Positions 5,244 to 56,138 of a DNA stretch of 64,000 nucleotides are shown piece by piece (positions within the stretch are counted from its first letter, which is position 1; every line of letters begins with the position of its first letter). The position numbers and the translations under genes were made by a program. Below the pieces are notes generated by a model. It searched no databases. It worked only from the letters and a program-made list of their open reading frames with translations, and was not told where the DNA came from. Location: the IMG/VR virus record IMGVR_UViG_3300011989_000257, positions 32,001 through 96,000 of that record; one strand, written 5' to 3'. The stretch comes from a virus (Duplodnaviria; Caudoviricetes).

Positions 5244-6354
5244 ATTTTTTTATCTCTTCTAAAAGTTTATCAGTGTTTTTAATTAATTGTTCACCTAAAA
5301 ATAAATCATAATCTTCGTGAGTATAATACAATATTTTAACGTTATGTTCTTTACAAAGTTCTTTTTTATTTTTATCTAATTCTTTTTGGCGTTTTAATTT
5401 CTTATTACCTCCCCAATTTTTCACAATGTCAAAATGCTGTATTCCTTGACATTCAACAGCAACATTATATTCTGGTAAATAAAAATCTAAACTTTGTAAA
5501 CCTAGCCAGTTAAATCTTTTTTGCCTTTCTACAATAAAAGACATTTTGTCAAAAAAACTATTTATTTCTTCTTCAAGCAAACTTTCTTTGCACATTGGAC
5601 AACCATTCCCATCTATATGACTAAATGGCCTCTGCCAGAATTCTCCGTGTTTTGGGCATATTATACACACTTTAGTTGTCGAATCCACATATTTAACTTT
5701 AGAATAATCGTATTTGTTGTTATGAACGATTTTGGATTGTTCAAGAAAATTATTGATTTTATTTTCTTTAATACAGTTAGGACAATTACCACCTTTCAAA
5801 TGAACAGTAGGAGTTTGCCAAAACTCACCGTGTTCTGGACAAATAATACAAACTTCTTTTTTACTGTGAATATATTCCACTTTTGAGTAGTCATATTTAT
5901 CTCCGTGAACTTCTTTGGCTCTATTTACAAATGTAGTCGTATCATATACTTTCTCATTGCATTTTTTACACCCAAAGCCATTTAAGTGTGAATAAGGAAC
6001 TTGCCAAAACTCACCGTGAACTGGGCATATTATACACACTTTTGTTCGGTTATTAATATAATCAACTTTTGAGTAATCATACTTATCACCGTGAACCTCC
6101 CTAGCCCTCCTTATAAATTCATCTTTTCCGTCTCTAAAAACATCACCCCTAGTTATATTGGCACACTTTGGACAATCTTGCCCTTTAAGGTGATTATGCG
6201 GTGTTTGCCAGAATTCACCATGTTTAGGGCATATTATGCATACTTTTTCATGCATTTTTTTATATTCTACTCTTGAGTAGTCATACTTGTCACCGTGAAC
6301 CTCCTTAGCTCTATCAACAAACTCTTTATTAGTAATTTTCCTTAACATAGACAT
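5221..6354 (-). CDS. free-standing homing-endonuclease-like protein: four Zn-ribbon repeats plus C-terminal PD-(D/E)XK/Vsr-like nuclease
   Basis: 4x HGDKYDYSKV.Y.....VCIICP.HGEFWQ.P..H..G..C..C repeats; C-terminal LDFYLPEYNVAVECQGIQH; own ATATTTAT motif at 6365. Confidence 0.8.
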   Translation of the reverse strand: MSMLRKITNKEFVDRAKEVHGDKYDYSRVEYKKMHEKVCIICPKHGEFWQTPHNHLKGQDCPKCANITRGDVFRDGKDEFIRRAREVHGDKYDYSKVDYINNRTKVCIICPVHGEFWQVPYSHLNGFGCKKCNEKVYDTTTFVNRAKEVHGDKYDYSKVEYIHSKKEVCIICPEHGEFWQTPTVHLKGGNCPNCIKENKINNFLEQSKIVHNNKYDYSKVKYVDSTTKVCIICPKHGEFWQRPFSHIDGNGCPMCKESLLEEEINSFFDKMSFIVERQKRFNWLGLQSLDFYLPEYNVAVECQGIQHFDIVKNWGGNKKLKRQKELDKNKKELCKEHNVKILYYTHEDYDLFLGEQLIKNTDKLLEEIKKYDKIKML

Positions 6355-6398
6355 ATTTTTATATATAAATATTAAATTAGTTAAGAAAAACCACCATT

Positions 6399-7190
6399 TT
6401 ACTCTGTTTTTTCGCCTTTAAAAATGAATTTATCTTTATCACGTTTAACACTTGGGTGAAACAAATATTCACGTTTTGCCAAATCAAACCACCACTGTGA
6501 TTCCTCACCACTTACAGTTTCCTTATAGATATTTACAAGAGAACCCTTTCTATCAAGGGTATGGTTATATCCAACCTTTGGAATGACGAATACTTTTTTA
6601 CCTTTATTTGTTAGACGAAGAAGCCACTCATACCAGAATGTAACTTTGATTGAAGGCTTTAACCCACCAACTTCTTGCCAATCCTTAATGTTGAATACCG
6701 AACCAGTTAGATAGAAATCAAAATAATTTCGCAAACAATCATGGTCAATATAACCAATCTCATTGGAAAAAGATGAAGCCCAAGCAGCCTCATTTCCGAA
6801 ACCTATATACTTTCCATTATTAAAGTCTGTAATATCCTCAAGAGTCATAAATACACTTGTATCTGGCATAAATTCCACATACTTCTTTACGTTCGGCAAC
6901 CAAATTGGTGTATACGTATCATCAAACTCAAGGATTGAGAACCACTTGAAATCATTTGCTACTGCATCTACAGCAGCATTTACAAGGTCAGCAAACGTTG
7001 TACCATCACCCTCTGAGATAATACGTAGTACACTGCTTGGAATGTTCTTAATCTTAGCCTCTGAAGTACCATTTGGTACTGAAAGACAAACTGTAACTCC
7101 CTCTGGAACACTTTTAATTGCCTTATTAGCAAGTTCTATATTTTCCTTACCAAATTCATGCATTGGTATTATCACTACTAGTTCCTTCAT
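6399..7190 (-). CDS. glycosyltransferase, GT-A fold (family 2-like)
   Basis: N-terminal LVVIIPMH, ILEFDD (DxD-like), WQEVGGLK, YEWLLRL...VIPKVGYNH. Confidence 0.7.
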   Translation of the reverse strand: MKELVVIIPMHEFGKENIELANKAIKSVPEGVTVCLSVPNGTSEAKIKNIPSSVLRIISEGDGTTFADLVNAAVDAVANDFKWFSILEFDDTYTPIWLPNVKKYVEFMPDTSVFMTLEDITDFNNGKYIGFGNEAAWASSFSNEIGYIDHDCLRNYFDFYLTGSVFNIKDWQEVGGLKPSIKVTFWYEWLLRLTNKGKKVFVIPKVGYNHTLDRKGSLVNIYKETVSGEESQWWFDLAKREYLFHPSVKRDKDKFIFKGEKTE

Positions 7191-30326: not shown

Positions 30327-32909
30327 TTAACCTTTACCGTATACACCAGTTTGTGCTGGGAAGTTAGCCATTGTAGCCAAATCACTCAAGTACTTACCAC
30401 CATTAATATCCCTATTGATGGATTCCTTAATCATATTCTTAATCTGTGTCATGAATGCATAGTCATTAAGTAATTCACGACCATCGATAGACTTGGAATA
30501 ATTTCCAGCATCTAGCCTCAATGTTCCACTTATATTAATGTTGAAATCTTTAACTGTAATTGTATTGCCATTTACATTTGAAGTCTCACTCCTATTTGGC
30601 TTATAGATATACTCTGGATTTTCTCCAAGTGGCTTTGGTTTGACAACGGTATCACCAAATACTGCATTGAATTGTTGTGGAGTGATTACAGCTTCTCCAC
30701 TGTTTGCCAATATTGGTACTTTATCTCCACTGTATGAGTTTCCTCCAATAACGCCACCTTTAGCATGCTTTTCACTACCCCCAAAGAAATCTCCTATAAT
30801 TTTTGTTGGAGACCAATCTTTGCCAAATAGTTTACCAATCCCTTCAGCAACCCAAGCAATTGGGTTGTTGTCAAATAGCCATTTACCAAATTTAAATATT
30901 GTTCCGAATGCCGATTTACCTATTTCCCACACAGATTTTGCACCATCACTAAGCCATTTCCAAGCAGAGGTTGCCCCATCAACAACAACATCCCAACCTT
31001 TTGATATTGTATCTGTAATTTCACCCCAATGTTCACCAACAAATCTTCCAGCAAAATCACCAAGGAAACCTCCAATTGCAGCACCAATAGGTCCTCCAAC
31101 AACTGCCCCAAGAGCAGTTCCAACAGCTGTTCCTATTCCAGCCCCTCTATCTGCGTTATTGTCTGCTGTAATAGCATTATATGTACCAATACCAACACCA
31201 AGTCCAGCTCCTCCAAGAGTTAGGGCTTTAGCCCCTCTGCTTAATGCGCCAAATGATTGGAATGGAGCTTTAATAGCAGACATTACTCTTCCACTACTAC
31301 CCCTATTCATACTATAAGCAGCTCTATTGTTAAGAAACATTCCTTTCGAAGCGTCCCATATGCTTCTTCCTAGCCACTTACCACCACGTCCTATTGCGTT
31401 TGCAGCACCTCTAGCAGCCTTTCCTCCAAGTCCCTTACTCATTCCGAGGCTATTAGCCATCCCGAATAGTTTCTTTGCAGCTAAAACACCAAGTAGTATT
31501 TTCCAATGTTCTGTTGCAAATTTAAGAAAACCTATTACATGACTTATAAACGATTTAATTGGTTCTTTGTGTTCCTTAAGCCAATCATAAGCGCCACGAA
31601 CAGATTCACCAACATTCTTTGCCAAAGGCTCTAACTTGTTTTTAGCCCAAGCCCCAAATTGTTTTAAGTCCCCTTGCATTTTAGGGAAAAGTCCTTCAAC
31701 AAATTTAGCGAACATTGCCTTAATAGACTCTTTAATTCCAGTCAATATCTCATTAATTGATGAAAGACTTCTAGCATTCTCTTCCATAATATCACGGTCA
31801 GACATACCTTGGTATTTCATCATTTCCTCAATGACAGATTTATCAATAGTTCCACCACTACTTAAGTCAACTTTCTTACCTCCAGTTGTTGTAAACATAA
31901 CTTTCCCATTCGCAACATCTGACTTGTTAATTAAGAAGTCTTTCTGTTCTTGGGTAAGTCCAGCCATCACACTAGAACTTATATGACTCTCCTTATATGC
32001 ATTTGATGCTTGCTTCTTTGCACTACCAACCAATTCATCTGGACTCATTCCCATTGCCTTTGCAGCATTCCTAAGCATATCCATCATCACTGGGTCAACC
32101 GTTGCAATTCCCTTCTGTGCATCGAACTTTGCACTGCCTTGAGCCATTTTGACCAATCTGTTCATCAATGCCTCTGGGTCTGCATTCGCTTCATATGCCA
32201 TGTCAAGTAGGTTTCCTCCAAACATTGCAAACTGTCCACCAAGCATATTCAGTCTTGCTGAAGCCTCTATTGCCGAGTCAATTTCCATAAATGCGTTAGC
32301 TGCTTGCTCAACTGAATTCAAACTCATCCCAACCTTTTCAGCTTGCATTGCCATACGAGTTAAGCCATCAATACCAGTACGGAATGAAAGCTTATTTGCC
32401 ATGCTCAAATTATTGGCAATCTTCTCACTAACTTTCTGAGCATTAAGTCCACTCTTCGCAGCACTTGCATAAGCCTTGGACACAGCACCTTGAACAGTAT
32501 TGAGTTGTCCTCCCATACCATTCATCATTTCCTCAGTGAACTTGGTGACTGTGCTAGAACCAACAAGTTTGTTTAATTGTAAGAAACCTTCAGCTTGTGA
32601 TTCATTGAGCATTAATTGTCTGCTAGTGGCAACAGATATATTCCTCTGTAATTCCCTTACTTGTTCAGCAGCAACGCCATATTTCATCGCAAGCTTCTCA
32701 GTACGGTCAGTTAATACCTCAGTATAGGCTTGCGCTTCCTTGGCGTTCATACCCATCTCACGAGCAAATGCAATACCTTCTTGATGGAACTGCATAGCAC
32801 CTTGAGTACCACTCTTTATGAGGGTATTAAGGTAGTTGAAGGCACTTGCAAGAGTGCCACGTATGATACCAGCTGTGGCTATTAAAGTATTCGCTAATAA
32901 CGTATTCAT
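30327..32909 (-). CDS. tape measure protein
   Basis: 860 aa, Ala/Gly-rich helical, Trp-periodic region, HAKGG...GDKVPILANSGEAVIT motif; lies between chaperones and baseplate genes. Confidence 0.8.
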   Translation of the reverse strand: MNTLLANTLIATAGIIRGTLASAFNYLNTLIKSGTQGAMQFHQEGIAFAREMGMNAKEAQAYTEVLTDRTEKLAMKYGVAAEQVRELQRNISVATSRQLMLNESQAEGFLQLNKLVGSSTVTKFTEEMMNGMGGQLNTVQGAVSKAYASAAKSGLNAQKVSEKIANNLSMANKLSFRTGIDGLTRMAMQAEKVGMSLNSVEQAANAFMEIDSAIEASARLNMLGGQFAMFGGNLLDMAYEANADPEALMNRLVKMAQGSAKFDAQKGIATVDPVMMDMLRNAAKAMGMSPDELVGSAKKQASNAYKESHISSSVMAGLTQEQKDFLINKSDVANGKVMFTTTGGKKVDLSSGGTIDKSVIEEMMKYQGMSDRDIMEENARSLSSINEILTGIKESIKAMFAKFVEGLFPKMQGDLKQFGAWAKNKLEPLAKNVGESVRGAYDWLKEHKEPIKSFISHVIGFLKFATEHWKILLGVLAAKKLFGMANSLGMSKGLGGKAARGAANAIGRGGKWLGRSIWDASKGMFLNNRAAYSMNRGSSGRVMSAIKAPFQSFGALSRGAKALTLGGAGLGVGIGTYNAITADNNADRGAGIGTAVGTALGAVVGGPIGAAIGGFLGDFAGRFVGEHWGEITDTISKGWDVVVDGATSAWKWLSDGAKSVWEIGKSAFGTIFKFGKWLFDNNPIAWVAEGIGKLFGKDWSPTKIIGDFFGGSEKHAKGGVIGGNSYSGDKVPILANSGEAVITPQQFNAVFGDTVVKPKPLGENPEYIYKPNRSETSNVNGNTITVKDFNINISGTLRLDAGNYSKSIDGRELLNDYAFMTQIKNMIKESINRDINGGKYLSDLATMANFPAQTGVYGKG

Positions 32910-43573: not shown

Positions 43574-45604
43574 TTATCTGAACTCGTTAATGCTCCAATG
43601 TACAAGACCATCAACACGAACATGTCCAAAGTAACGGTTGTTCACCATCTTCTTCGCATAACGTGTCATAATACCCTTTACAGGTGCAAAGTTGAATGGA
43701 TTATACATAGTTGGGGTCAACTGCATTGGCACATATGGTGCATAGATGTAACCTGTGTCAAGAAGTGACTTACCCTTATGACCAATAATCATTGACCAGT
43801 GTGGGCTATATGGGTCACGATATACAGTGTAACGTCCACCGAGAGCACCAATCTTCTCAATACCCATGTTGTACTGGTCGCTTTCTGCTGATGCATCTGA
43901 TACATGGAAGTACTCAAGGTTATCAAGCAATGCTGAAATCTCTGAAGATACTACAATGAAGTTAGCACCACCACGAAGTGTAGACTTGTGAATCTGTGCA
44001 GAAATCTGGTTAATCTTAGTCATAAGCTCTTGGTTCCAGTCCTTCTGAGTGTAGTTAGTAGAGAAAGCAGCCATACGTCTCCAACCATTAACATCCCAAC
44101 GTGCCTGCCAAGGTGCGCCCTTACGAAGGTCACGGAGAATTTCACGGTCAATCTCAGCAGCAATCTGCTCTGAAAGGATAGCTGTCAACTCAGCCTCTGC
44201 GTCAATGTTGTGGAATGCAGAAACGTCTTGTGCCAACTCTGGTGACCATGTTGCACGAAGTTTTCTTTCCTCAACTGATACAGTTACTGAATCAAGCTTG
44301 AAGCTAACCTCACCGATTTCGGTCTCAAGCTCAAGTGAATCGTACTGTGCCCAAGCAATCTTGAAGAGCTGTGCAAGATTAGCCTTAGTCTCCTCAGTTG
44401 AACCGCTAGAAATAGCAGCGTCAAGAGCAGCAGCATCAACACCTACATAACCGTCAATTGTACCTGCTTGCTGAACAACTGGTTTAGCGAGGTCAAGCTC
44501 GATGTACATCTTACCCTCAGCATCGCAAGCAGCACCGTACTCTACGATACCCTTACCATATTTCTGAGTAACAACTCTGAAAGGAACTGACTCAAACTTA
44601 CGGAAAGCAGCAGTCTTAACTGTCTCTGAACCAGGAACATTAGCTGCTGGGAGTTCCTTCTGAGTAATAACCTTCAATGAAGCGAGGAATCCTTCAGTGT
44701 CCATTTCGTTTCCGTCAGGACCAGTCAACTTAGCAGCGTTGAATGAAGAGAAACCATCAATCTCAAGGATGACGTTACGTACAGTACCATCGAATCCACT
44801 CTTGAAGTACTTGTTAAGGTTATCAGCACCGAATGGGCGAACACCACCAGGAGTCAAGAACACTGGAATTGCGCTACCAACCTTGATAGTTACCTTACCC
44901 TTTGAGTTGTCATACAAGAAGTCGTTGTAGAACAAGTCGTAAAGTGACTTCTGGAAGTACTGAGTTACCTCAGGACCTGCTTGACGAAGAGCTGTTACAT
45001 GAAGACCCTCAGCCTCTGCACGTGCCTTAGCCTCATCGAAGCTAGTTGCATCTTCGATGGTCTCGTTCAACTGTGGAACGTACCATGAGTTCTTGTCGAG
45101 GTCATTGATTGTCTCATCTGGGAGATAGTATCTTGGCTCAACACGTCCTTCCTTGTTACGGTTAACTCTGTCATATCCCATAAGACCCTTATGACGACCA
45201 GTAGTACCATCAATGATATCACCTGGCTCTGTGCCACCAGTGTAATCTGCTGGGAGTTCCCACTCTCTCTCTGAAGTAACAGGGAGGATGAAGAACAACT
45301 TACCAACAGGAAGGTTCATTGCTTGTACTGAAACGATGTCGTTAGCAAGAAGTTTGCTGAACACACGTCTAATGATAGGGAAAACAACGGTCTCAAATGA
45401 ACCACTGTTATCAGAAGCAGTAGCCTCATAAATCAAGTGCTTTGCTTCATTCTCATACAATGTAGCAACATTCTCCTTGATACCCTCTGGAAGACCCTCT
45501 GTAAAGCCGAGGTTATCCCAACGGTTCTGAATGCTCTCACGTATCTGTTTTTGTGCGTTGTACTCAATATTGCCAACTACACCACTTGATAAAAATTCTT
45601 TCAT
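43574..45604 (-). CDS. major capsid protein, T4 gp23-like, with large insertion
   Basis: FPIIRRVF..LLANDIVSVQAM..PVG, RKLRATWSPELAQDV.AFHNIDAEAEL, GYIYAPYVP, GIMTRY; predicted maturation site IYE60/A. Confidence 0.95.
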   Translation of the reverse strand: MKEFLSSGVVGNIEYNAQKQIRESIQNRWDNLGFTEGLPEGIKENVATLYENEAKHLIYEATASDNSGSFETVVFPIIRRVFSKLLANDIVSVQAMNLPVGKLFFILPVTSEREWELPADYTGGTEPGDIIDGTTGRHKGLMGYDRVNRNKEGRVEPRYYLPDETINDLDKNSWYVPQLNETIEDATSFDEAKARAEAEGLHVTALRQAGPEVTQYFQKSLYDLFYNDFLYDNSKGKVTIKVGSAIPVFLTPGGVRPFGADNLNKYFKSGFDGTVRNVILEIDGFSSFNAAKLTGPDGNEMDTEGFLASLKVITQKELPAANVPGSETVKTAAFRKFESVPFRVVTQKYGKGIVEYGAACDAEGKMYIELDLAKPVVQQAGTIDGYVGVDAAALDAAISSGSTEETKANLAQLFKIAWAQYDSLELETEIGEVSFKLDSVTVSVEERKLRATWSPELAQDVSAFHNIDAEAELTAILSEQIAAEIDREILRDLRKGAPWQARWDVNGWRRMAAFSTNYTQKDWNQELMTKINQISAQIHKSTLRGGANFIVVSSEISALLDNLEYFHVSDASAESDQYNMGIEKIGALGGRYTVYRDPYSPHWSMIIGHKGKSLLDTGYIYAPYVPMQLTPTMYNPFNFAPVKGIMTRYAKKMVNNRYFGHVRVDGLVHWSINEFR

Positions 45605-45675: not shown

Positions 45676-47169
45676 TTATTTCATCATTCTGTGCATTAAA
45701 TCAAGAGATTCCATAACATCTGGTGACTTATAGATAGGTGTCTCATTGATTTTCTTTGAACCCTCAACTGTAAGACTCTTGTCCTCAGTGATGTTCATTT
45801 TGTTGGTTTTCTTGAGTTCACGACTGATTGACTCATAGAGTGCCTTTGATGCATCAATAGTCTTTCCTTCGTTCTTAAATCTGTTGATAATTTCTTTCTT
45901 CTCGTCTTGAGAAGTTGTATTCTCAGAAACCAACTTGATAATCTGTGCAAGATTATGATTAGTTACAGATACCTTCTTCAACTGCTCCATAAGGTCTGTC
46001 AATGTAGATTTAAGTTCCTTGTTTTCCTCAAGAACTGCATTCGCTCTCTTCATGAAGCTCTCGTTTGTCGGATTGCCTTCATACTCTCCTGCGGTTGAAA
46101 CATGATGCTGGTTCATTGGGGAATTCTTCTTTGCCTTAATAGGGTTATGAGATTTTGTTCCCATCATTCTTCCATGAGCACCCATTCTACCTCCGCATTC
46201 TGCTGCTGACTCTTCAAGATTCTCTTCCTCTTCAAGTTGTTTACCTTTTTCAGCATTGAATGGTTTATCTGCTTTATTTTTCTTACCTGGGTATCCAGAC
46301 CAAGGCTTCTCTGAGCCTTTTGGTACACCTGCATCCCAATCGTTTACATTTTTACCTGGCTCTGACATACCTGGATTTGTCATCACATCCTTTTTCTGAT
46401 AATTGTCAGTGTAGCCAACGTTTGAATCATACTCTAGTACGAGTTCAAACATCCTTTCTGTTGATTCATTCATATCATCCATGTCATTATTAAAATCATC
46501 TTCTGCACCGAAATCATCAGCACCTTTGTCATCAGTGAGAACTGTGTCATCACTTGGTTCAGATGCTGCAACACCAGTTGCTTCACCCTCATCGTCAAGC
46601 TTGATTAGGTACTCAGCTCCAGTTTCATTGTCTTGAATGTTCACATTTCCGCTGTCATCTTTATGTACAAGGATTTGGTCATCATTCTTCATTAATTTGT
46701 AAACCTTTACGATTTCCTCGTCTTCCGCATTTGTAAAGTCATACTCATCGTCTGATACCTTATATTTATCAAACTCTGCCCAGTCATCGCCACCTTCGCC
46801 TTCAACTGCTCCGTCATCGATAGATTCTCCTTCAGCAGCACCATCAGTATCTGACTCGCCACCTTCGTTTTCTCCACCTTCTACATCGCCTTCTGAAGAC
46901 TCCATCCCAGTGTCTGCGGATGCTTGACCATCGTCAATAGCATCGCTAGATTCTGCATCGTTTGTAATATCAGAACTAGTATCTTCCACTTCACCCTCTT
47001 CGTAGTCCTTGTCATCGTCCTCAGACAATAACTTGGCATATGTATCACGCACAGCCTCACCCAAAAGAGCCTTGACTGCGCTCTCAGTATTTTCCTTCAA
47101 AGAATTTGCGAGTGTGTTGTAATCCAATAAAGATTCTCTAACTACTTTGCTTCTAATATTTTTGCTCAT
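45676..47169 (-). CDS. prohead scaffold/core protein (gp22-like position), highly acidic
   Basis: Directly upstream of MCP; acidic disordered middle, C-terminal coiled coil, many (I/L/V)xE sites. Confidence 0.7.
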   Translation of the reverse strand: MSKNIRSKVVRESLLDYNTLANSLKENTESAVKALLGEAVRDTYAKLLSEDDDKDYEEGEVEDTSSDITNDAESSDAIDDGQASADTGMESSEGDVEGGENEGGESDTDGAAEGESIDDGAVEGEGGDDWAEFDKYKVSDDEYDFTNAEDEEIVKVYKLMKNDDQILVHKDDSGNVNIQDNETGAEYLIKLDDEGEATGVAASEPSDDTVLTDDKGADDFGAEDDFNNDMDDMNESTERMFELVLEYDSNVGYTDNYQKKDVMTNPGMSEPGKNVNDWDAGVPKGSEKPWSGYPGKKNKADKPFNAEKGKQLEEEENLEESAAECGGRMGAHGRMMGTKSHNPIKAKKNSPMNQHHVSTAGEYEGNPTNESFMKRANAVLEENKELKSTLTDLMEQLKKVSVTNHNLAQIIKLVSENTTSQDEKKEIINRFKNEGKTIDASKALYESISRELKKTNKMNITEDKSLTVEGSKKINETPIYKSPDVMESLDLMHRMMK

Positions 47170-47359
47170 TTAGAAAATAGATTTAATACATTATTTTTTA
47201 ATATAAATATAGATTAAATACCAAAAAAATTCATAAAATGCCTAAAATAATACATTTATGAGCAATTTATGACTTATATTTGATATCTAATTAATAAATA
47301 TTTGGATGAGAATGAATATTTATAGTAAATTTAAAAATAAAAACTATATATTTGCAAAT

Positions 47360-48067
47360 ATGATGAAACAGGATAATTTAGAAATAATAAAGGAAGGAAA
47401 AACAGGACATGGCATACTAATTGAAAATGATGGTTTCATATCATTGGATTTTGGTAAGAATAACCATCAGTTGAAAGAGGATATTAGTGAAAAAGGATGG
47501 TTTGTGCCTTACCCATTTGTTGTGGATGCTGTATTTCAGAAATTTGGAATTAAAAATGCAAACGGTAGAATTTACCCAGAGTCAATTCTAAAAAGAGAAG
47601 TTGAAAAATACCAGAATATGATTGCAGAAAGGATGGCGTTGGGAGAACTAAACCATCCAGCAGAGTCAACAATCGACTTGGGTAGAATAGCAATCAATAT
47701 TGTTGAACTTCATTGGGAGGGAGCTACTCTAGTAGGAAAGCTTGAAATCAACACGACTGAAGGATTTAGAAAGTATGGTATTGTAAGTACTCGTGGTGAC
47801 GATATGGCTAATCTTATTATAAATGGATATAAAATCGGTGTATCATCAAGAGGTGTTGGTTCTGTTGAACAAAAACTTGGACAATATATCGTAGGGGATG
47901 ACTTCGAACTTATATGTTGGGATGTAGTATCAAGTCCATCTACGCCAGGAGCCTATGTAGGAAAACCAGAGGAATTGCAACAATATATTGAAAGTAATAC
48001 TAGTAATAGTGACAAGAATTCAATTAATGAAAAGATTAATAAGATTAAAAATATCCTAAAGTCATAA
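47360..48067 (+). CDS. prohead maturation protease, T4 gp21-like
   Basis: KNANGRIYP, LGELNHP, IGVSSRGVGS, DFELICWDVVSSPSTPGA; start reassigned to ATG 47360. Confidence 0.9.
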   Translation: MMKQDNLEIIKEGKTGHGILIENDGFISLDFGKNNHQLKEDISEKGWFVPYPFVVDAVFQKFGIKNANGRIYPESILKREVEKYQNMIAERMALGELNHPAESTIDLGRIAINIVELHWEGATLVGKLEINTTEGFRKYGIVSTRGDDMANLIINGYKIGVSSRGVGSVEQKLGQYIVGDDFELICWDVVSSPSTPGAYVGKPEELQQYIESNTSNSDKNSINEKINKIKNILKS

Positions 48068-48071
48068 TATT

Positions 48072-48470
48072 ATGAAAAAAGTTATTAGATTAACCGAAAG
48101 CGATTTGCATGGTCTGATAAATGAATCGGTCACTAGAATAATAAATGAGATTGGTGTTTATCCAGATGGACAAACTGATTTATTCTTCGACCAAGACCAA
48201 GTTGACGAATACCGTTCATCTGCAAATGGTAGAGCAATCGAGGCTTTACTGAGGGCTGAGAGAGAATGCGGATGGAGACATATGAATTCAAAGGATATGG
48301 GGCGTTATACAGAGTATAAATGTTATCCTATTAGTGAGTACACATCAAAGGATAGACAAACCTTTATGGAAAGAATCAAAGCTTATGCTCCAGTGAAAGA
48401 TAACATAGAATTCGTATGCGTAAGGAATACATACATTAAAAGTTTTACAGTAAGAATTAAGAACATCTAA
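48072..48470 (+). CDS. IRLTES-leader cargo protein
   Basis: MKKVIRLTESDLHGLINESVTRIINE followed by a unique domain. Confidence 0.7.
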   Translation: MKKVIRLTESDLHGLINESVTRIINEIGVYPDGQTDLFFDQDQVDEYRSSANGRAIEALLRAERECGWRHMNSKDMGRYTEYKCYPISEYTSKDRQTFMERIKAYAPVKDNIEFVCVRNTYIKSFTVRIKNI

Positions 48471-48475
48471 AAAAT

Positions 48476-48510
48476 AAATAAGCGAGACTAGATTTAGCCT
48501 CGCTTATTTT
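48476..48510. terminator. bidirectional terminator
   Basis: AAATAAGCGAG...CTCGCTTATTT between convergent cargo genes. Confidence 0.75.
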
Positions 48511-48843
48511 TTATCCCATTGGTGGGAAGTCATCGTAATTGGCTTCAAGGTCAATTCTATCTTGCGCCCAATCTTCCATATCATCACCATTTACAATATC
48601 ATCTTGATAATTATCATTGTGAGTTCGGTCAAGAGGCTCTCCAGTTATTCCAAAATCGTGGTCATTTGTCATACCGTTAAATGGTGTGACTTCCTCTTCT
48701 TTCTCAAATGGTTGGTAGTTATTCAATACGTTGTCATTCTCACGCCAATCATTTCCCAATACGTCTTCCCTTATTATTCTTTTAACGGAATTCTCTATAA
48801 TACCTTTTAATTCTGATTCCGTAAGTCTTATAATTTTCTTCAT
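48511..48843 (-). CDS. IRLTES-leader cargo protein (acidic)
   Basis: MKKIIRLTESELKGIIENSVKRIIRE; late motif at 48865. Confidence 0.7.
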   Translation of the reverse strand: MKKIIRLTESELKGIIENSVKRIIREDVLGNDWRENDNVLNNYQPFEKEEEVTPFNGMTNDHDFGITGEPLDRTHNDNYQDDIVNGDDMEDWAQDRIDLEANYDDFPPMG

Positions 48844-48874
48844 ATTTTTCAATTTATTTTTACAATAAATATTC

Positions 48875-49312
48875 TTATCTTTTTGTTTTGTTTATTGTAA
48901 AACCATTTTCTTTGAAGGAATACACCAAATTATTTGCTATTGTGCTTATTTTTCTTTCCAACAAATCATTAAGGTCTTTGAGATGCTTCTTATTCTTTTC
49001 ATTCTGACGCAAATAGAAGTCAAATGATAAGAATTTTTTGTCATTAGGTGATAACCCTTCAGTGCTTATGTCAAAATCTAATATGAGACGATTATCAAAA
49101 TTTATACCATCTATTAAAAATGATTTTATGTTTTTCTTCATACGTTCCTCTATGCCATCTATAACATTATCGTAATCCATTTCCCTTTGCGGTGAAACCC
49201 AACATTTTCCACTTATATAAATGACTTGCGGATTGTTCCTATTAACAGTACCATATTTTAACGATATATGGTTGCACACATCCAATTTATACTCTTTGTT
49301 TAATCTTTTCAT
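48875..49312 (-). CDS. hypothetical protein of the head cluster
   Basis: 145-aa ORF. Confidence 0.65.
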   Translation of the reverse strand: MKRLNKEYKLDVCNHISLKYGTVNRNNPQVIYISGKCWVSPQREMDYDNVIDGIEERMKKNIKSFLIDGINFDNRLILDFDISTEGLSPNDKKFLSFDFYLRQNEKNKKHLKDLNDLLERKISTIANNLVYSFKENGFTINKTKR

Positions 49313-49389
49313 ATTTTATTTAAAAAATAATGTTTTTCAATGAAAAAATCAAGTCCCACAAGTAAAAAATTAGGAAGAGTGTATAAGAA

Positions 49390-49417
49390 AAGAGCAACCA
49401 TTGTTATGATTGCTCTT
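49390..49417 (-). terminator. cassette terminator, copy 1
   Basis: AAGAGCAATCA-TAACAA-TGGTTGCTCTT on the minus strand, then T-rich. Confidence 0.8.
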
Positions 49418-49423
49418 GAACTT

Positions 49424-49918
49424 TTATTGCCAACCCTTACCTTTTACGTATTTTGAGTCACCCCTATCGAATTTTCCAATTTCGTCAGTTGCTTTTTGAT
49501 ATTTGTCAATAGTGTTTTTTGTTGGTTTCATTTTGGAACGAGGATTAAATGCATGAGAACCATCTTTATCTTGTCTTGGGTAATATCCAGCATGCATTTG
49601 TGCATGCATTGGAGTCCAACGTCCCATTCCTCCATAAGCATTTCCAAATTGAGTAACTGTACCTTTTACGTCTTGGTGATAAGGTAAACCATTTTCATCA
49701 TATGTACCATCAAGTTCGTCATGTCCAAATTTGTCATTAAACCTATCTGTTGCAAATTGAGCTAAGTCTTCAGCTTTATCATCTTCCCCTTGCTCTGCTC
49801 GTTTCTTTGCAGCATTCGCATATGTTTTCCAATCAAGTTCTGTGAGTACCCTATTCACAGACTCTTTCACAATATTGTGAAGGTCACTCTCCGTTAATCT
49901 TATAAGTTTTTTATTCAT
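49424..49918 (-). CDS. IRLTES-leader cargo protein
   Basis: MNKKLIRLTESDLHNIVKESVNRVLTE followed by a unique domain. Confidence 0.75.
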   Translation of the reverse strand: MNKKLIRLTESDLHNIVKESVNRVLTELDWKTYANAAKKRAEQGEDDKAEDLAQFATDRFNDKFGHDELDGTYDENGLPYHQDVKGTVTQFGNAYGGMGRWTPMHAQMHAGYYPRQDKDGSHAFNPRSKMKPTKNTIDKYQKATDEIGKFDRGDSKYVKGKGWQ

Positions 49919-49960
49919 ATTATAATACGTATTTAGTTCGTTATTTTAATAATAAATATC
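49893..49960 (-). repeat. late promoter/5'UTR/leader repeat, copy 1
   Basis: Near-identical to 56062..56128. Confidence 0.9.
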
Positions 49961-49974
49961 AGATAGATTTTGCT

Positions 49975-51588
49975 TTAATCATCCATTAAGATATCCCTTA
50001 TCTCAAGTAATTTTGCGATATCCTTAACAATTGTTTCTTTATTAAAAGTCATTTCATTAATCTGGTTACTCAAGCCCTTGAGTTCAACATTTTCTGAATC
50101 TTCTTTTAGCATGTCGTTAATCTTATCTATGCATTCATTCTTGAACTTGTTAAACAATTTCTCTTTTCTTTGTTCAGCTATTGGTGTTCTGAAATCAGTT
50201 ATTTGCTGAACAAATGATAGCTCAGATTCATTAAGGTTATTCTTGAGTTTTTCCTCAAACTCTTCAATTAATTCATCTGGAGTTTTTCCTTCATTTATTT
50301 TATCTGATTTATGTGCATCCATCCATTTGCAAACAGCATCGTAACTCTCAGCAAGAGGAATCATATTGTTTGTTGTCCTCTTTGTTGTCAATATGACATC
50401 ACCATTCTCGTATAGTTTCATCGATTCCTCATCAACGAACTCACTTGGTTTAATGCCACTCTCAATCATAACGTTTCTAAGTTTCTTGTTTGAAGCCTTT
50501 ACAGTCTTGACATCAATGTCCTCGCAAACAATTTTTGCAAGGTCTGCAAGAACAGTCTTTGAACCAATTATTTTTGCATGATTCTCATTATACTGTTCCT
50601 TAATTACGTTGTAGAAATTAAATTGGCTTCTAAGATTCTTGTCCTCCTTAATGGTCTTTATGACATTCCTTACAGCCTTTTTGTTTGATTTGATAAGAGT
50701 TGGAAGCTCACTTTCAAATATATGGTTTAGAACACCAAAATTAGTTGTGTTCATTTCCTCCATTAATTCATCTTCATGTTTGCTTTCCTCTATTGCTTCA
50801 TTAAGCATGTCATTAACATATTCATATGCCTTATAATCACCTTTCTTAAGCGCCTCAGACATTATGTTAATATAATTTGAAAATTCTTCTTGATGATTTC
50901 TATTTTTCATAATTATAATATTGTTTTCTTTCTTATGTTCTTTTCCTTCTTGATATAATGTTGCATTTCTCTGGGCAAGCGTTTTCCATCCTTCCTTTTC
51001 TTTTTGTACTTGCCAAGATTTTTCTGCTTCATTATATCTTTTTATTATATCAGCTACTTTGGGGTCTATTTTAAATTCTTCATTCATTTCATCATACCCA
51101 TCATCACCATCCATATTGGAATTAATATATTCAGCAACTGTTGGGTTTTTTTCGAAGGCACTTTGTGAATCTTCTACAACTAAAAGATATTTCATAGGGT
51201 CAATTCCAAGTTCATTAACAATTTTTCTAAGCATTCTAGAACTTGGCAAATACCAAAATGCCATAAAACTAGGATATTTATCAGTATGGGTATTCCATAT
51301 TCTTCCACGACAATATGACTTCTCATAGCATTGCCTTTCAATCCAATTAATATATGTATCCTTTATATGACTGATTGCTTTGCCCATTAACTTCTTTGCC
51401 GCTTGTGCTGCAATCATAAGATGGGTTGTTGAACCAGTCATGAACAGATACTCATTATCTAACGATATTGGGAAATAACCAAAAGATGTGGCTATTTTGC
51501 TATGCCACCCCCAATCTGTCTTTGTAACGGTATCATATACATTATCTGGTGTACCTTCGAAATATTCTAATATTCTTTTATTTTTCAT
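49975..51588 (-). CDS. head-cluster protein, apparent fusion of an N-terminal domain to a helical protein starting at Met 50910
   Basis: 537 aa; A-rich initiation-like sequence in frame before the internal ATG. Confidence 0.65.
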   Translation of the reverse strand: MKNKRILEYFEGTPDNVYDTVTKTDWGWHSKIATSFGYFPISLDNEYLFMTGSTTHLMIAAQAAKKLMGKAISHIKDTYINWIERQCYEKSYCRGRIWNTHTDKYPSFMAFWYLPSSRMLRKIVNELGIDPMKYLLVVEDSQSAFEKNPTVAEYINSNMDGDDGYDEMNEEFKIDPKVADIIKRYNEAEKSWQVQKEKEGWKTLAQRNATLYQEGKEHKKENNIIIMKNRNHQEEFSNYINIMSEALKKGDYKAYEYVNDMLNEAIEESKHEDELMEEMNTTNFGVLNHIFESELPTLIKSNKKAVRNVIKTIKEDKNLRSQFNFYNVIKEQYNENHAKIIGSKTVLADLAKIVCEDIDVKTVKASNKKLRNVMIESGIKPSEFVDEESMKLYENGDVILTTKRTTNNMIPLAESYDAVCKWMDAHKSDKINEGKTPDELIEEFEEKLKNNLNESELSFVQQITDFRTPIAEQRKEKLFNKFKNECIDKINDMLKEDSENVELKGLSNQINEMTFNKETIVKDIAKLLEIRDILMDD

Positions 51589-51624
51589 CTAACCATTATT
51601 TCCAATAAATATCATGTTTAATAG

Positions 51625-51655
51625 AAAAAAGCGTGACATCAGTTGTCACGCTTCT
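51625..51655 (-). terminator. terminator after portal
   Basis: AAGCGTGACA-TCAGT-TGTCACGCTT. Confidence 0.8.
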
Positions 51656-51660
51656 ATTCT

Positions 51661-53697
51661 TTAATTCTTATCAACGAATTTCCCAAGTTCATCAATCATC
51701 TTGTCAAAGTCCTCATTAACCATTAAGGCATCACTGTCGTATATGTCAGCACGTTTATACTCTGTTTCCATGTGTTTACCCTTTCTCTCGTTCACTCTTG
51801 ATAGATACTCATTGAAAAGAATATCAAGTTTATCATTCTGCTCATTTATGATAGGTTTGTTAGAATGAATAGATTCCATTGGTGCATTTGGGTCATTTCC
51901 CATATCAGCAGTTGGCATTGAGCCTTCATTGCCACCCATCATTATGGTATCATCTCCAGGACCGCCAATATCACTTCCATCCATATTAGGGGCATCTCCC
52001 ATAGGAGGTGGTGGTGCTCCCATTCCGCCTCCAGGACCTCCACTACCATCCATGCCGCCTTGTCCACCTTGCATATCATCCATATACTCAGCTCCAGGTT
52101 CGCCATAGATTCTATCGACAGTATCAAATATACCTGTCTTCTTGATAATCTGAGTTGTCTTCTCAAGTTCAGCCGCAATACCCTTTTCAAGACGTATCTC
52201 TTCGAGATTTTCCTTAATTTCCTTCTCAGACCACTTCATAATCTGTTTCAATGCACGTGTCTGGGACATAACTGGAAGACCATTTCCTGGGTCGCTAACA
52301 GCATCCCTTACAGCATCAATCTTCTTCTGCATATTCTCAATCTCAAGCTGTTCAGCTTGTGTTGATGGATTATTCATTGTCAATGAGAAATTTGTTAATT
52401 CATCATTAAACCCTAACAAAAACAAATGAATTGATGCAACTTTTGTAAGTTCCATTAAGAATGCTTGCTGTATTCTGTTAACTAATCTAGTAAAACGAAT
52501 ATCCATAAGTGCAAGGTTCTTGCCATCCCCAGCAGCTTCTTCAAAGTTAAGAAATGACTTAGGTATTCTTAACGCAGTCAGTACTTTATTCTGTACGAAC
52601 TTGATATCATCCATTGCCGTAAGGTTTTGTCCTGCTGAAAGAGTATCAATAGGGTTTGGGGCATTTTCATCACGTACTGGTAAGAATACATCTTGGTCAA
52701 ATGCAAGCAAATTCTTTCTTAAGTCAATTTGACCAGTCATTGGGTCAATAATTGGAGTTCTCTTAAATTGATTTGCAATTTGTTCAACATATGCTTGCAC
52801 ATCAGCATCATCAATTGCGCCAACAAATATCTTATACACCCTACGTTCAATGGAACGTTCAAGACGATATATAAGCATCATATCTTCCATTAAGCTCAGC
52901 ATCCTCCAATGTCTTCTAGCAGCATTTAATGCTGATACGCCATACGGGAGATATAATGAGTTAGTCAATAGTCTAAAATGTGCAATCTGCCAATCTCTAA
53001 ATGGAACTTGCGAATTATTATCATCCAACCATATAAACTGAGTAGAAAGGTCAGCATCATCCTTTGTAATCCCGTTTACAGCAATTGAAGCTCCAGCACC
53101 ATATGGATTCTGTATACCATTCTCAATTCTCTCCATATTAAACACTGGAAGTTGCTTCCACCCCTTAACGCCATTCTTATGGTCAACATCTAATAGCATA
53201 AACTGATTTCCGTATTTACACATTGCACGGATAATCATAGGGGCAGTCAATTGTATATTCAATCTATTAACAAATAAATCTTCAAGGATACTCTTTATTC
53301 TGTCAGATTTGGAATATACATTGACTATATTACCTTTGTCTCCAGCAATACATGCTTCCTCCGCATATGTGTCAAGTGCAGCACCAATTTCTGGGAATGC
53401 ATCCATTAAATCTGCATCACGATACATAAGTTTAATGTTATTAAGTCCAGCATATGCAGTAACAGATAGGTTAACATTTGCTTTAACCCACCTATCTTTT
53501 AAATATTTATTTTGTCGTAGCTCTAATTTCTTTTGTATATAATCTTCTCTATCAGTGGTTCTATATAGTACATCATTATCATTGCCTTGAGACATATCAT
53601 ATGAGTTTATATGAGGCTCAATGGCAGAAGTAGGCGATGACCAATTACCAGTTATAGCTTTATCTAGAGCTTGAAATACAGTACTCTTCTTTGCCAT
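51661..53697 (-). CDS. portal protein, T4 gp20-like
   Basis: PEIGAALD, IAHFRL, MEDMMLIYRLERSIERRVYKIFVG, IDTLSAGQNL, ALRIPKSFL, DIRF. Confidence 0.92.
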   Translation of the reverse strand: MAKKSTVFQALDKAITGNWSSPTSAIEPHINSYDMSQGNDNDVLYRTTDREDYIQKKLELRQNKYLKDRWVKANVNLSVTAYAGLNNIKLMYRDADLMDAFPEIGAALDTYAEEACIAGDKGNIVNVYSKSDRIKSILEDLFVNRLNIQLTAPMIIRAMCKYGNQFMLLDVDHKNGVKGWKQLPVFNMERIENGIQNPYGAGASIAVNGITKDDADLSTQFIWLDDNNSQVPFRDWQIAHFRLLTNSLYLPYGVSALNAARRHWRMLSLMEDMMLIYRLERSIERRVYKIFVGAIDDADVQAYVEQIANQFKRTPIIDPMTGQIDLRKNLLAFDQDVFLPVRDENAPNPIDTLSAGQNLTAMDDIKFVQNKVLTALRIPKSFLNFEEAAGDGKNLALMDIRFTRLVNRIQQAFLMELTKVASIHLFLLGFNDELTNFSLTMNNPSTQAEQLEIENMQKKIDAVRDAVSDPGNGLPVMSQTRALKQIMKWSEKEIKENLEEIRLEKGIAAELEKTTQIIKKTGIFDTVDRIYGEPGAEYMDDMQGGQGGMDGSGGPGGGMGAPPPPMGDAPNMDGSDIGGPGDDTIMMGGNEGSMPTADMGNDPNAPMESIHSNKPIINEQNDKLDILFNEYLSRVNERKGKHMETEYKRADIYDSDALMVNEDFDKMIDELGKFVDKN

Positions 53698-53750
53698 ATT
53701 ATATTTTCTTTAAAAAATAATGATTATCCTATAAATATCAAGATAAAACA

Positions 53751-53774
53751 AAAGCGAGTGTTTTTCACTCGCTT
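53751..53774 (-). terminator. terminator after terminase
   Basis: AAGCGAGTG-TTTTT-CACTCGCTT. Confidence 0.8.
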
Positions 53775-53776
53775 AA

Positions 53777-55651
53777 TTATTTCAAGCCGCCAAACACCCA
53801 CATATGAGTTCCATTAATTACATTGGTTTTAGGAAAACTTTTCTGTGTATAAAACGGTAAGCCACTCTTTGGGGTAATTGTATAGCCATCCCTCAATTTA
53901 GACCTATGGGTATTCATAGACCCACCCATCATATAAGCATTTAATATTGCTTTATCTTTTTTCTGGGTATTCTGTATTCTATTAACAGTATATTGCATAA
54001 CAAATAGTCCCATTGCAAGAGAACATAAAGTATCATCATGAGCACCCTCCATATGGTCAATACGAGCAGTTTCACCCTTAAAAATCCAAGTATTCAATTC
54101 ATTAATCACTCTTACTGAACGAATTTTAAACTCATTGTTACGAACCATTCCTGCAAAATTAGATAAAACTGGATATCTATTTCCTTGAAAATGAAATCCT
54201 GGAAGTTTATCAGTATATCCATCGTAATTCTTTGTTGACCTTTGAACCATGTAGGTTTTCTGATTCATATCTTCATAATACATGTTCTTGTATCCCATAT
54301 TTAGCATTGTTATAATGGCCGCATCTCCTTGTCCGCCAGTAGCATCAACAACAACAAATGCATCATTATACATGGTTGCATATTGATAAGCAATAGCACC
54401 AATATCATCCCCAAGCTTCTTGCCAACATACTCAGCAACTTGTTCAATGATTGGCATCCCGTTTTCATCACGTCCATCCATGTCTATTATCTCAATTGCT
54501 GTACGGTCAGCAGCAGTTCCTCTGCTAGGGTCAATTGAGCAGATATATCTGTGACCATCGATTGGTTTTTTCCAGAACCAAGTTTCCTCACACAATGGGT
54601 CGATAAAATCATCAAGTGGCTCTCTTACGTTAAACCTTTCTTGCATCTCAATATATCTTGCTGCAACCACATTATCGTTTGAACCCATGAATGACACATC
54701 AAGTTCTTGGGCAATCTTCATTTCGTCATTGTTAAATGAATGGCACATATCCTCATACCAATCAGAAGTTGGTTTCCATCCATCATGCTCTAACTTTGCC
54801 CAACGTTCTTCGTCATATTTTACCCCTCCTTCGTTGTCAATTATTAAATCAGCATCATATTCCCATTCATTGGTTTCCTCATTTTTCCTCTTCCATACAA
54901 GATGTTTATTGAAACGAGGGTCTTGATACCAACGAAATTGTACTGCTGTAAAATTGTTCTCATGAGCCAATGCTTGACGGTAAATGTTATAATACAATGC
55001 ATCCATACCATTAGGCGTACTTACAATTACAGTCTTTGAATTTGGATTTGATGCCATTGTCGCAGCAGCAGTTGTATAAACTGAGATACCATCCTCGATG
55101 AATGCCGCCTCATCAAGAATTAGAGTACCTACTGCTGATATACCACGAGCAGCATTTGGTCCACTAGCACGAGCAATAACTCTACATCCATTAAATAATT
55201 TCAATTCACTTTTTGCATCTTTAACGAAAATAGATTTGAGGTTTTTTTCTGAATTCGAATCAGTTGAAAAATATTCTGGTCCCCACATCCATCGTGGAAC
55301 TTGTTCAAGGAAATCTCTAACCTTAATGATAATTTCATTAGCTTGGTCTAGTTTGTTTGCAATACAAAGTATAATCTCTGGAGATTCCTTCGATGCAAAT
55401 GCACATTGTGCAGCAGCCCATGCACTTGACAATGTTGTTATACCACATTGTCTTGGCTTAATTGCAATCACATTATTATGTTCAGCAAGTGCTTTAAGGA
55501 ATGCCCTCTGCCTTGGAAAACAATGGAATTGTGTTTTCTTACCTTTCATAGCATTAAAGGTAGAGAAATATTTTTCTATGAATGTAATTCTAGATTTATC
55601 AGCATAGCATAAAGCATAATCCCTCTGGGCTTCTTTATAATCAAAAATCAT
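53777..55651 (-). CDS. terminase large subunit, T4 gp17-like
   Basis: KPRQCGITT, LILDEAAF, VSTPNG, QELDVSF, SIDPSRG, HDDT. Confidence 0.95.
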   Translation of the reverse strand: MIFDYKEAQRDYALCYADKSRITFIEKYFSTFNAMKGKKTQFHCFPRQRAFLKALAEHNNVIAIKPRQCGITTLSSAWAAAQCAFASKESPEIILCIANKLDQANEIIIKVRDFLEQVPRWMWGPEYFSTDSNSEKNLKSIFVKDAKSELKLFNGCRVIARASGPNAARGISAVGTLILDEAAFIEDGISVYTTAAATMASNPNSKTVIVSTPNGMDALYYNIYRQALAHENNFTAVQFRWYQDPRFNKHLVWKRKNEETNEWEYDADLIIDNEGGVKYDEERWAKLEHDGWKPTSDWYEDMCHSFNNDEMKIAQELDVSFMGSNDNVVAARYIEMQERFNVREPLDDFIDPLCEETWFWKKPIDGHRYICSIDPSRGTAADRTAIEIIDMDGRDENGMPIIEQVAEYVGKKLGDDIGAIAYQYATMYNDAFVVVDATGGQGDAAIITMLNMGYKNMYYEDMNQKTYMVQRSTKNYDGYTDKLPGFHFQGNRYPVLSNFAGMVRNNEFKIRSVRVINELNTWIFKGETARIDHMEGAHDDTLCSLAMGLFVMQYTVNRIQNTQKKDKAILNAYMMGGSMNTHRSKLRDGYTITPKSGLPFYTQKSFPKTNVINGTHMWVFGGLK

Positions 55652-55680
55652 GTTCTTTTATTTTATTTTCTCATTATTTA

Positions 55681-55712
55681 CAAATATATTTAAAAAATAT
55701 TATAATTCCAAA
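55681..55712 (-). promoter_or_regulatory. host-type promoter upstream of terminase (in addition to the late motif at 55768)
   Basis: TTTG-N20-TATATTTG. Confidence 0.6.
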
Positions 55713-55788
55713 CAAAAATCAGGTAAATTTAAATAAATATTACAATATTTCGAAAAGTTATTCATTTATAAATATTTACAAACAAAAA

Positions 55789-55816
55789 AAGAGCAACCAA
55801 CAGTGTGATTGCTCTT
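55789..55816 (-). terminator. cassette terminator, copy 2
   Basis: AAGAGCAATCA-CACTGT-TGGTTGCTCTT then TTTTT; stem identical to 49390..49417. Confidence 0.85.
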
Positions 55817-55826
55817 ATACATTACA

Positions 55827-56087
55827 TCATCTTCGAGGATATGGAATGTTCCCTTCTTTATAGATTTTCACTGTAACGATAGTATCATTACTAGGATATA
55901 CGTTAAAACCGTTTTGGTTTCTATCATAGTCTAACCCACTTTGAGTTAAAACGTCTTCAATCTTATCTGCTAGCATAGAAGCAACTCCCATACCTTCATC
56001 AAATCCTTCTTTCACTATTTTATTCACTGATTCTTTCACGATTCTATGAAGGTCTTGTTCTGTTAATCTTATAAGTTTCTTATTCAT
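55827..56087 (-). CDS. IRLTES-leader cargo protein
   Basis: MNKKLIRLTEQDLHRIVKESVNKIVKE followed by a unique ~60-aa domain. Confidence 0.75.
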   Translation of the reverse strand: MNKKLIRLTEQDLHRIVKESVNKIVKEGFDEGMGVASMLADKIEDVLTQSGLDYDRNQNGFNVYPSNDTIVTVKIYKEGNIPYPRR

Positions 56088-56128
56088 ATTATAATACGTA
56101 TTAATTCGTTATTTTAATAATAAATATC
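56062..56128 (-). repeat. late promoter/5'UTR/leader repeat, copy 2
   Basis: Near-identical to 49893..49960. Confidence 0.9.
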
Positions 56129-56138
56129 GTCAAGATAT

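Follow-up and report, generated by a model that had tools for sequence, protein, structure and literature searches.

A leader peptide of 26-27 amino acids opens four otherwise unrelated small proteins in the head gene cluster of a giant phage, and this leader and the genes that carry it are the subject of the present analysis. The window is the 64,000-nucleotide stretch covering positions 32,001 to 96,000 of IMG/VR record IMGVR_UViG_3300011989_000257 (Duplodnaviria; Caudoviricetes), and the whole genome is a single virus record of 412,514 bp with 34.5% G+C. An earlier note, made from the sequence of the window, had claimed that four open reading frames (ORFs) share an N-terminus of about 26 aa and then diverge totally. 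Alignment bears this out: the four can be aligned solely over residues 1 to 26-27, and the remainder of each protein, here called the cargo, is unalignable. Positions are those of the window unless marked as genome positions. The four genes are as follows.

48072-48470, plus strand: leader-tagged gene encoding 132 aa, leader at 48072-48149 reading MKKVIRLTESDLHGLINESVTRIINE, beginning 4 nt past the stop of the prohead protease gene
48511-48843, minus strand: leader-tagged gene encoding 110 aa from the ATG at 48843, leader at 48766-48843
49424-49918, minus strand: leader-tagged gene encoding 164 aa, leader at 49838-49918
55827-56087, minus strand: leader-tagged gene encoding 86 aa, leader at 56007-56087, in the slot between the genes of a 558-aa protein and the terminase

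The leader follows the consensus M-(N)KK-[ILV]-IRLTE-S/Q-D/E-L-H/K-x-[IL]-[IV]-x-E/N-S-V-x-R/K-[IV]-[ILV]-x-E, in which R, L, T, E, L, S, V and the final E are invariant in the alignment. Each window leader contains three [ILV]-x-E triplets at 9- and 8-residue spacing, the third forming the boundary between leader and cargo, which is the arrangement that the earlier note had described. In the MNKK form of the leader, the first of these triplets, L-T-E, spans positions 8 to 10, with Leu first and Glu last. An AlphaFold2 model of the 164-aa protein renders residues 10-27 as a helix preceding a separately and confidently folded cargo, and a hydrophobic stripe consisting of L13, I16/V17, V21 and V24/L25 runs along this helix.

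Neither the leader nor its cargos are represented in curated resources. No Pfam or PHROGs family covers the leader, and the motif string LTESDL had zero occurrences in a literature text search. When the four window proteins and six other genomic copies were searched against Pfam and PHROGs, no significant family match was obtained save for one DUF3008 domain, and no cargo matched a family in either collection. The model of the 164-aa protein gave zero Foldseek matches in the PDB at E<=0.001, and in the ESM Atlas it matched unnamed clusters alone, with scores below 0.9.

The surrounding genes place three of the four leader genes next to the head maturation machinery of a T4-like phage. The recognised members of the cluster, in addition to a sheath gene, are these.

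47306-48067, plus strand: prohead protease of the T4 gp21 / peptidase S77 family, with the GELNHP (His) and SSRG (Ser) motifs kept
45676-47169, minus strand: 497-aa acidic protein encoded between protease and capsid protein, a candidate gp22-like scaffold on grounds of position and composition only
43574-45604, minus strand: major capsid protein, a T4 gp23 homologue with an N-terminal propeptide (gp23 match E 3e-29)
51661-53697, minus strand: portal protein, T4 gp20-like by PHROG
53777-55651, minus strand: large terminase subunit

The gp21-type protease on which the earlier note had built its proposal is well founded: the product matches Pfam PF03420 (E 1e-25) and the structure of T4 gp21 (PDB 5JBL, E 7e-17), and its catalytic motifs are kept. 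The capsid protein aligns through its N-arm with gp23 residues 93-130 and, weakly, through its propeptide with gp23 residues 8-43. Its maturation site is likely I-Y-E60|A; T4 gp23 is cut after L-T-E65, leaving a mature chain of 456 of its 521 residues. The 497-aa scaffold-like protein has no Pfam or PHROG family match. It consists of a nearly invariant N-terminal stretch of 68 aa, a hypervariable acidic region at about 70-128, a conserved middle domain and a helical C-terminus.

The genes are arranged in the order portal, a 537-aa protein, a leader gene, a 145-aa protein, a second leader gene, then the protease and a third leader gene on the opposite strand, and finally the scaffold-like and capsid proteins. 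T4 encodes its small core proteins gp67 and gp68 directly ahead of genes 21, 22 and 23, and gp21 cleaves both to leave acidic internal peptides. The claim that the leader genes flank or follow the protease holds for those at 48072, 48843 and 49918 and fails for that at 56087, which lies 8 kb off, beside the terminase gene.

Relatives of the phage keep these positions while exchanging what they contain. In the slot that separates the 558-aa protein from the terminase a leader gene is always present, but its cargo group differs in nearly every relative examined. One to four leader genes occupy the slot that separates the 537-aa protein from the protease; two of the cargo groups found there are conserved, and at least 14 are variable. 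The cargo family of the 132-aa protein (cluster 3) is kept beside the protease in relatives, and that of the 110-aa protein (cluster 1), whose cargo is strongly acidic with a net charge of -20, is kept adjoining the 145-aa protein and the protease. The cargo of the 164-aa protein belongs to the widespread DWKTYANA...KGKGWQ family (cluster 2), of which the genome encodes two further paralogues.

Leader genes and structural genes also have a short upstream motif in common, as the earlier note had observed in assigning the leader genes to a late motif. The genes for the capsid, scaffold-like, portal, terminase and sheath proteins have the sequence ATATTTAT, usually followed by an A/T-rich run resembling TTAAAAAT, at a distance of 5-60 nt upstream. 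The same motif precedes four leader genes, namely those at 48843, 49918 and 56087 and one at genome position 96761 (761 nt past the window end), while the protease operon has a one-mismatch version. The motif is unlike the sigma-70 consensus and may serve these phages as a late promoter. Its occurrences, and the hairpins behind two of the leader genes, are listed below.

56120-56127, minus strand: late-type promoter motif ATATTTAT, 32 nt upstream of the 86-aa leader gene
49952-49959, minus strand: late-type promoter motif ATATTTAT, upstream of the 164-aa leader gene
48865-48872, minus strand: late-type promoter motif ATATTTAT, upstream of the 110-aa leader gene
42783, 43403, 45653, 47210, 51612, 53738, 55740, 58308 and 60599, minus strand: ATATTTAT with an A/T-rich run, at nearly every structural gene
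49390-49417, minus strand: terminator-like hairpin behind the 164-aa gene, with a stem identical to that of the hairpin behind the 86-aa gene
55789-55816, minus strand: terminator-like hairpin behind the 86-aa gene, the cassette homologue of 49390-49417

The genes at 49918 and 56087 thus have promoter, 5' untranslated region (5'UTR), leader and terminator stem in common, the promoter and 5'UTR being nearly identical, and their cargos differ. Such an arrangement could indicate that the cassette is mainly a unit of recombination, in which promoter, 5'UTR and leader codons on one side and the terminator stem on the other serve as homology arms around a peptide with next to no function of its own. 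Slots that retain the leader while the cargo varies fit this explanation, as does a copy in Segatella bryantii whose promoter, UTR and leader retain 89% DNA identity over 130 nt. Selection on the peptide itself makes it unlikely. Among the 10 paralogous leaders of the genome, mean pS is 0.75, near saturation, vs a pN of 0.26, and codon choice varies, with Ser written TCA or AGT and Leu TTG or CTT. With synonymous sites nearly saturated and residues kept, it is therefore the peptide and not the DNA that is conserved and selected; conservation at the DNA level, whether by gene conversion or as a nucleic-acid element, was rejected on this ground as the general cause of the shared leader. Many leader copies moreover have no common 5'UTR. 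A role as recombination handle is compatible with the capsid-targeting function argued for below, and it probably contributes to cargo swapping.

The ten paralogues were found with a hidden Markov model (HMM) of the leader, a check that the earlier note had proposed, run on the six-frame translation of the entire genome. It returned 10 strong copies (E 1e-17 to 1e-9), 4 within the window and 6 outside it, and 3 weaker ones (E 7e-5 to 4e-4), one of them N-terminal (genome 394412) and two within a 599-aa protein; there were no further matches below E 0.05 in the genome. Such recurrence is far beyond chance. In 9 of the 10 strong copies the leader starts at the ATG or one codon after it, and the tenth sits behind a DUF3008 domain. 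The copies outside the window are these.

Genome 96761, 390539, 393351, 379845, 404296 and 6320: the six strong copies detected by the leader HMM
Genome 6081-6494, minus strand: DUF3008 domain (MPSKSKAQQRFF...) fused ahead of a strong leader module, a clear internal copy (locus L004, 85-495)
Genome 152319-154115, minus strand: 599-aa protein with two internal degenerate modules, IKLSEAELKQVVKEAAIRILSE and VKVTEAELKTIVKEAAIRAIKE (locus L008, 120-1916)

The two-module arrangement of the 599-aa protein is kept in relatives (L076, L045), and its N-terminus has a weak DUF5856 match. The weaker leader versions that had been listed for the window, at 17724, 33630, 57815 and 63736 and internally as KSVIVNESQIKNIIE, are not recovered by the HMM (E>1). 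A looser pattern written post hoc, [IVL]x[LIV]xE[SDEQNA]x[LIFVYM]xx[LIVM][LIVM], shows about 17-fold N-terminal enrichment once the strong copies are removed and includes 17724, and a still looser form of it includes 57815 and 63736. These versions may be distant variants of the leader.

The distribution of the leader extends well past this genome. A profile search with leader alignment A2 against 1.84 billion representative proteins matched 7,040 protein clusters at E<=1e-3 and 1,122 at E<=1e-10. An exact-pattern scan of IMG/VR gave 224 confirmed stretches, of which 77 loci were kept for counting. Many of these leader loci sit on contigs of 240-413 kb, and the leader contigs of 90-110 kb are about 30% complete fragments of such genomes. 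Head-cluster or sheath genes occur in 42 of the 77 module-centred phage loci. As the large leader-carrying contigs all come from one group of related giant phages, co-occurrence with an S77 protease is unusable as an independent test.

Within the 77 loci, 164 leader modules were counted, and 127 of them (77%) are unambiguously N-terminal. The module ends in an aliphatic-x-Glu motif with great regularity: its last residue (P1) is Glu in 146 of 164 (89%), and P3 is L, I, V or M in 159 (97%).

The cargos of the N-terminal copies are as varied as the earlier note had supposed from four examples, 145 of them falling into 73 unrelated BLASTP groups. They are small (median length 99 aa), hydrophilic (median GRAVY -1.07) and often acidic, with a pI below 6 in 57%. 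A conserved leader ahead of a variable core is also the general architecture of precursors of ribosomally synthesized and post-translationally modified peptides (RiPPs), bacteriocins or other exported peptides, in which the leader would be recognised by a modifying or export system. The resemblance is one of architecture, with no specific tool result behind it, and this explanation is highly improbable. Cargos with a median of 99 aa, one of which folds confidently, are not what it predicts, and the genes lie within a head-gene cluster. None of the 145 cargos has a hydrophobic run, and no modifying-enzyme or transporter family was found among the neighbours searched. The leader is charged along its full length and does not have the hydrophobic core that follows the basic N-terminus of a Sec or lipoprotein signal peptide.

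The closest precedent is the capsid-targeting sequence (CTS) of T4, which Mullaney and Black reportedly described in 1996 on the internal proteins (IPs) IPI, IPII and IPIII and on Alt. CTS propeptides direct IPI-III and Alt to the prohead core and are removed there by gp21, a precedent that the earlier note had given correctly (PMC7411985, PMC9026906). The CTS is 10 residues long, and its residues 8 and 10 govern processing (PMC9026906); IPII and IPIII both start with MKTYQEFIAE. Varied proteins of T-even phages begin with CTS-like sequences, and this was proposed as a route for loading different proteins into the head (PMC9026906, PMC7411985).

Several features of the leader correspond to this system. 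In both cases otherwise unrelated small proteins begin with a short peptide that ends in aliphatic-x-Glu, a gp21/S77 protease is encoded along with a gp23-type capsid protein that has a propeptide, and the tagged proteins vary between relatives. Leu 8 and Glu 10 of the MNKK leader fall at the very positions that govern processing of the T4 CTS. We infer that the leader is a portable propeptide of the T4 CTS type, a reading to which we attach moderate confidence. Leader genes would then be transcribed late, alongside the head genes. The leader, comprising a short N-terminal strand (KK-I-I-R-L) and an amphipathic helix (TESDLHxIVKESVxRVLxE), would dock its small hydrophilic cargo onto the prohead core during assembly, where the gp21-type (S77) protease would cut behind the Glu of as many as three [ILV]-x-E sites. 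If all three were cleaved, the leader would fall into peptides of 8-10 residues and the cargo would be set free inside the head. By analogy with T4, docking and cleavage would be accompanied by presence of the cargos in the virion and, possibly, by their ejection into the host.

The 497-aa scaffold-like protein was considered in relation to the leader. A complex prediction that paired the first 45 residues of the 164-aa protein, as the leader with its alignment, with the 497-aa protein scored 0.00 and speaks neither for nor against an interaction. Residues 28-41 of the scaffold-like protein (TESAVKALLGEAVR) matched leader residues 9-22 over 14 columns in hhalign, with an E of 0.1 and a probability of 0.6%, which is not significant.

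Other systems resemble the leader in part. Like the T4 core proteins gp67 and gp68, the window's leader proteins are small and encoded directly upstream of protease, scaffold and capsid genes, but they share no detectable sequence similarity with them and have no Pfam or PHROG match. Cleavage of gp67 and gp68 by gp21 as the source of acidic internal peptides is documented for T4 (PMC9026906), and some of the conserved cargos are probably core or internal components of this kind. Other cargos, exchanged between relatives, would instead resemble the variable internal-protein genes of T-even phages. That cargos act as injected anti-defence effectors, as the earlier note had proposed, is speculation by analogy with T4.

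In the giant phages SPN3US and phiKZ, a gp21-like protease removes the propeptides of ejection and inner-body proteins at a motif ending in Glu (PMC7411985, PMC10052503). These phages likewise process many head proteins, and their propeptides were proposed to target the prohead; however, the propeptides are 111-130 residues long and are not described there as one portable common leader (PMC7411985, PMC10052503). The leader differs from the T4 CTS in other ways: it has 26-27 aa instead of 10 and three candidate sites instead of one, it is found in 7,040 protein clusters with 10-13 tagged genes per genome, its cargos are for the most part acidic or neutral, unlike the basic IPs of T4, and its copies are sometimes internal or tandem, with leader-cargo units concatenated in frame, or linked to insertion sequences (IS) in host chromosomes.

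A different comparison is offered by the cargo-loading peptides of encapsulins and the encapsulation peptides of bacterial microcompartments. These are short, conserved, terminal or interdomain sequences that address diverse cargo into a protein shell. No protease removes them, and their binding partner is the shell protein itself. The leader shares with them the short conserved peptide or helix in terminal or interdomain position on diverse cargo, and the assignment as a CTS differs from them in predicting that the peptide is removed.

A number of observations weigh against assignment of the leader as a CTS propeptide. It has no sequence homology to the T4 CTS, with which only the aliphatic (8) and Glu (10) positions correspond, and its length and conservation go far beyond what a 10-residue tag requires. 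As [ILV]-x-E is a three-residue motif in a helix rich in Glu, Ile, Leu and Val, its presence alone is weak evidence of cleavage. A tblastn search with the 164-aa protein found no match in 50,697 GenBank phage records. Within the genome, 8 of the 13 copies lie outside the head cluster, amid genes without structural annotation. Among the 164 modules, 19 begin with a Met although a long open frame extends upstream of it, 18 are internal and have no Met, and about 11-23% of copies are internal or repeated. Many database proteins carry two to four modules, some of them C-terminal. Finally, leader genes also occur in the chromosomes of Segatella bryantii and of Prevotella isolates, usually adjoining an IS1595 transposase, and no head genes lie within 8 kb of these bacterial leader loci. 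PHROG searches of the neighbours of the second leader-gene cluster of the phage (genome 379-404 kb and 6 kb) returned no structural annotation.

Several of these points suit the main rival explanation, in which the leader is an autonomous strand-plus-helix unit of interaction or oligomerisation that is never cut by the prohead protease and whose partner lies outside the capsid interior, such as a common phage or host hub protein or another assembly site. Modules that are N-terminal, interdomain or C-terminal, two to four to a protein, are readily understood as docking units, as are copies in bacterial chromosomes away from capsid genes and the location of most copies of this genome outside the head cluster. 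The stripe of L13, I16/V17, V21 and V24/L25 would fit the docking of any helix, and a length and conservation exceeding those of a cleavage tag would be expected. What a docking unit leaves unexplained, however, is the near-invariant aliphatic-x-Glu at the module end, the head-cluster slots, the promoter motif in common with structural genes and the extreme N-terminal preference, and the bacterial copies are largely accounted for by linkage to an IS that is also present in the phages. We regard it as possible but doubtful.

In the multi-module database proteins every module precedes another domain, in some cases the DWKTY...KGKGWQ cargo that occurs as a single unit in the window. Examples with two to four modules, each ahead of a different domain, are P0171, P0122, P0123, P0226 and P0138, and one of these has an N-terminal HNH endonuclease domain. 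Internal modules often retain a Met and an AT-rich-looking linker (NESKxM or NKQYKxNTNM), resembling an in-frame fusion of adjacent cassettes.

The bacterial copies can be traced in some detail. In Segatella bryantii DSM 11371 (NZ_BPTR01000001.1; L088 7952-8346), a lone 87-aa ORF lies between glycosidase and lipoprotein genes, and its late promoter motif, 5'UTR and leader are those noted above, the 130 nt corresponding to window 56007-56136. An IS1595 transposase remnant is located behind it on the opposite strand. This copy points to a Segatella/Prevotella host and to phage-to-host transfer of DNA. In Prevotella sp. MA2016 and tf2-5 and in several metagenome-assembled genomes (MAGs), the module gene is positioned tail to tail with the 3' end of an IS1595-family transposase. 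The same abutment, with a transposase of PF12762 + PF12760 at a distance of no more than about 20 nt, was found at 11 of 21 bacterial and 10 of 79 phage loci, among others at L096 7398-9413, L097 7617-9407, L010, L012, L018, L036, L056 and L067. Between IS1595 elements, the transposase and module are conserved and the intervening sequence differs. The phage has an IS1595-type transposase homologue of its own.

Genome 232508-233530, minus strand: IS1595-type transposase homologue, 340 aa, convergent with a leaderless 337-aa gene and adjoined by a GIY-YIG-like gene

The simplest reading of these arrangements is that phage DNA enters host chromosomes with the IS, or by way of homology that the IS supplies. 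Since the IS explains the host copies, these weaken the assignment as a capsid-targeting propeptide only mildly. The idea that cargo is random flanking sequence read out of the IS end was rejected, the cargo families being conserved in phages (groups of 14-16) and one of them folding confidently. A 252-kb contig of Bacteroidales UBA4293 (L104 8001-11347) encodes two divergent leader genes, of 186 and 281 aa; their neighbours look MazG-type and PrfH-type by eye, without profile search, and the contig has no DNA similarity to the phage.

The host cassettes might themselves be functional, given that the S. bryantii copy retains late promoter, 5'UTR and leader of the phage and that the others travel with an IS1595 transposase. 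They would be silent until infection, when the late machinery of the phage would express them and the address tag would load their products into progeny capsids. We hold this to be very unlikely, and if it were true, the host or IS cassettes would amount to a host or mobile-element 'Trojan horse' that spoils virions or rides in them.

The concept of a targeting propeptide is already established in T4, and it has been discussed as an evolutionary mechanism in T-even phages (PMC9026906). What the present phages most likely add is scale, with a far larger number of unrelated late proteins placed under a common leader. If the leader is a capsid tag, the T4 CTS principle would be expanded to a high-capacity, cassette-swapping system that includes multi-unit polyproteins, and the leader could be used directly as a tag to bring foreign proteins into such capsids. 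A single short profile would then reveal the packaged, and possibly injected, protein repertoire of a large group of uncultivated giant phages of Prevotella-type bacteria from rumen and gut. That repertoire would comprise thousands of protein families of unknown function, including natural candidates for takeover of the host in the first minutes of infection and for counter-defence.

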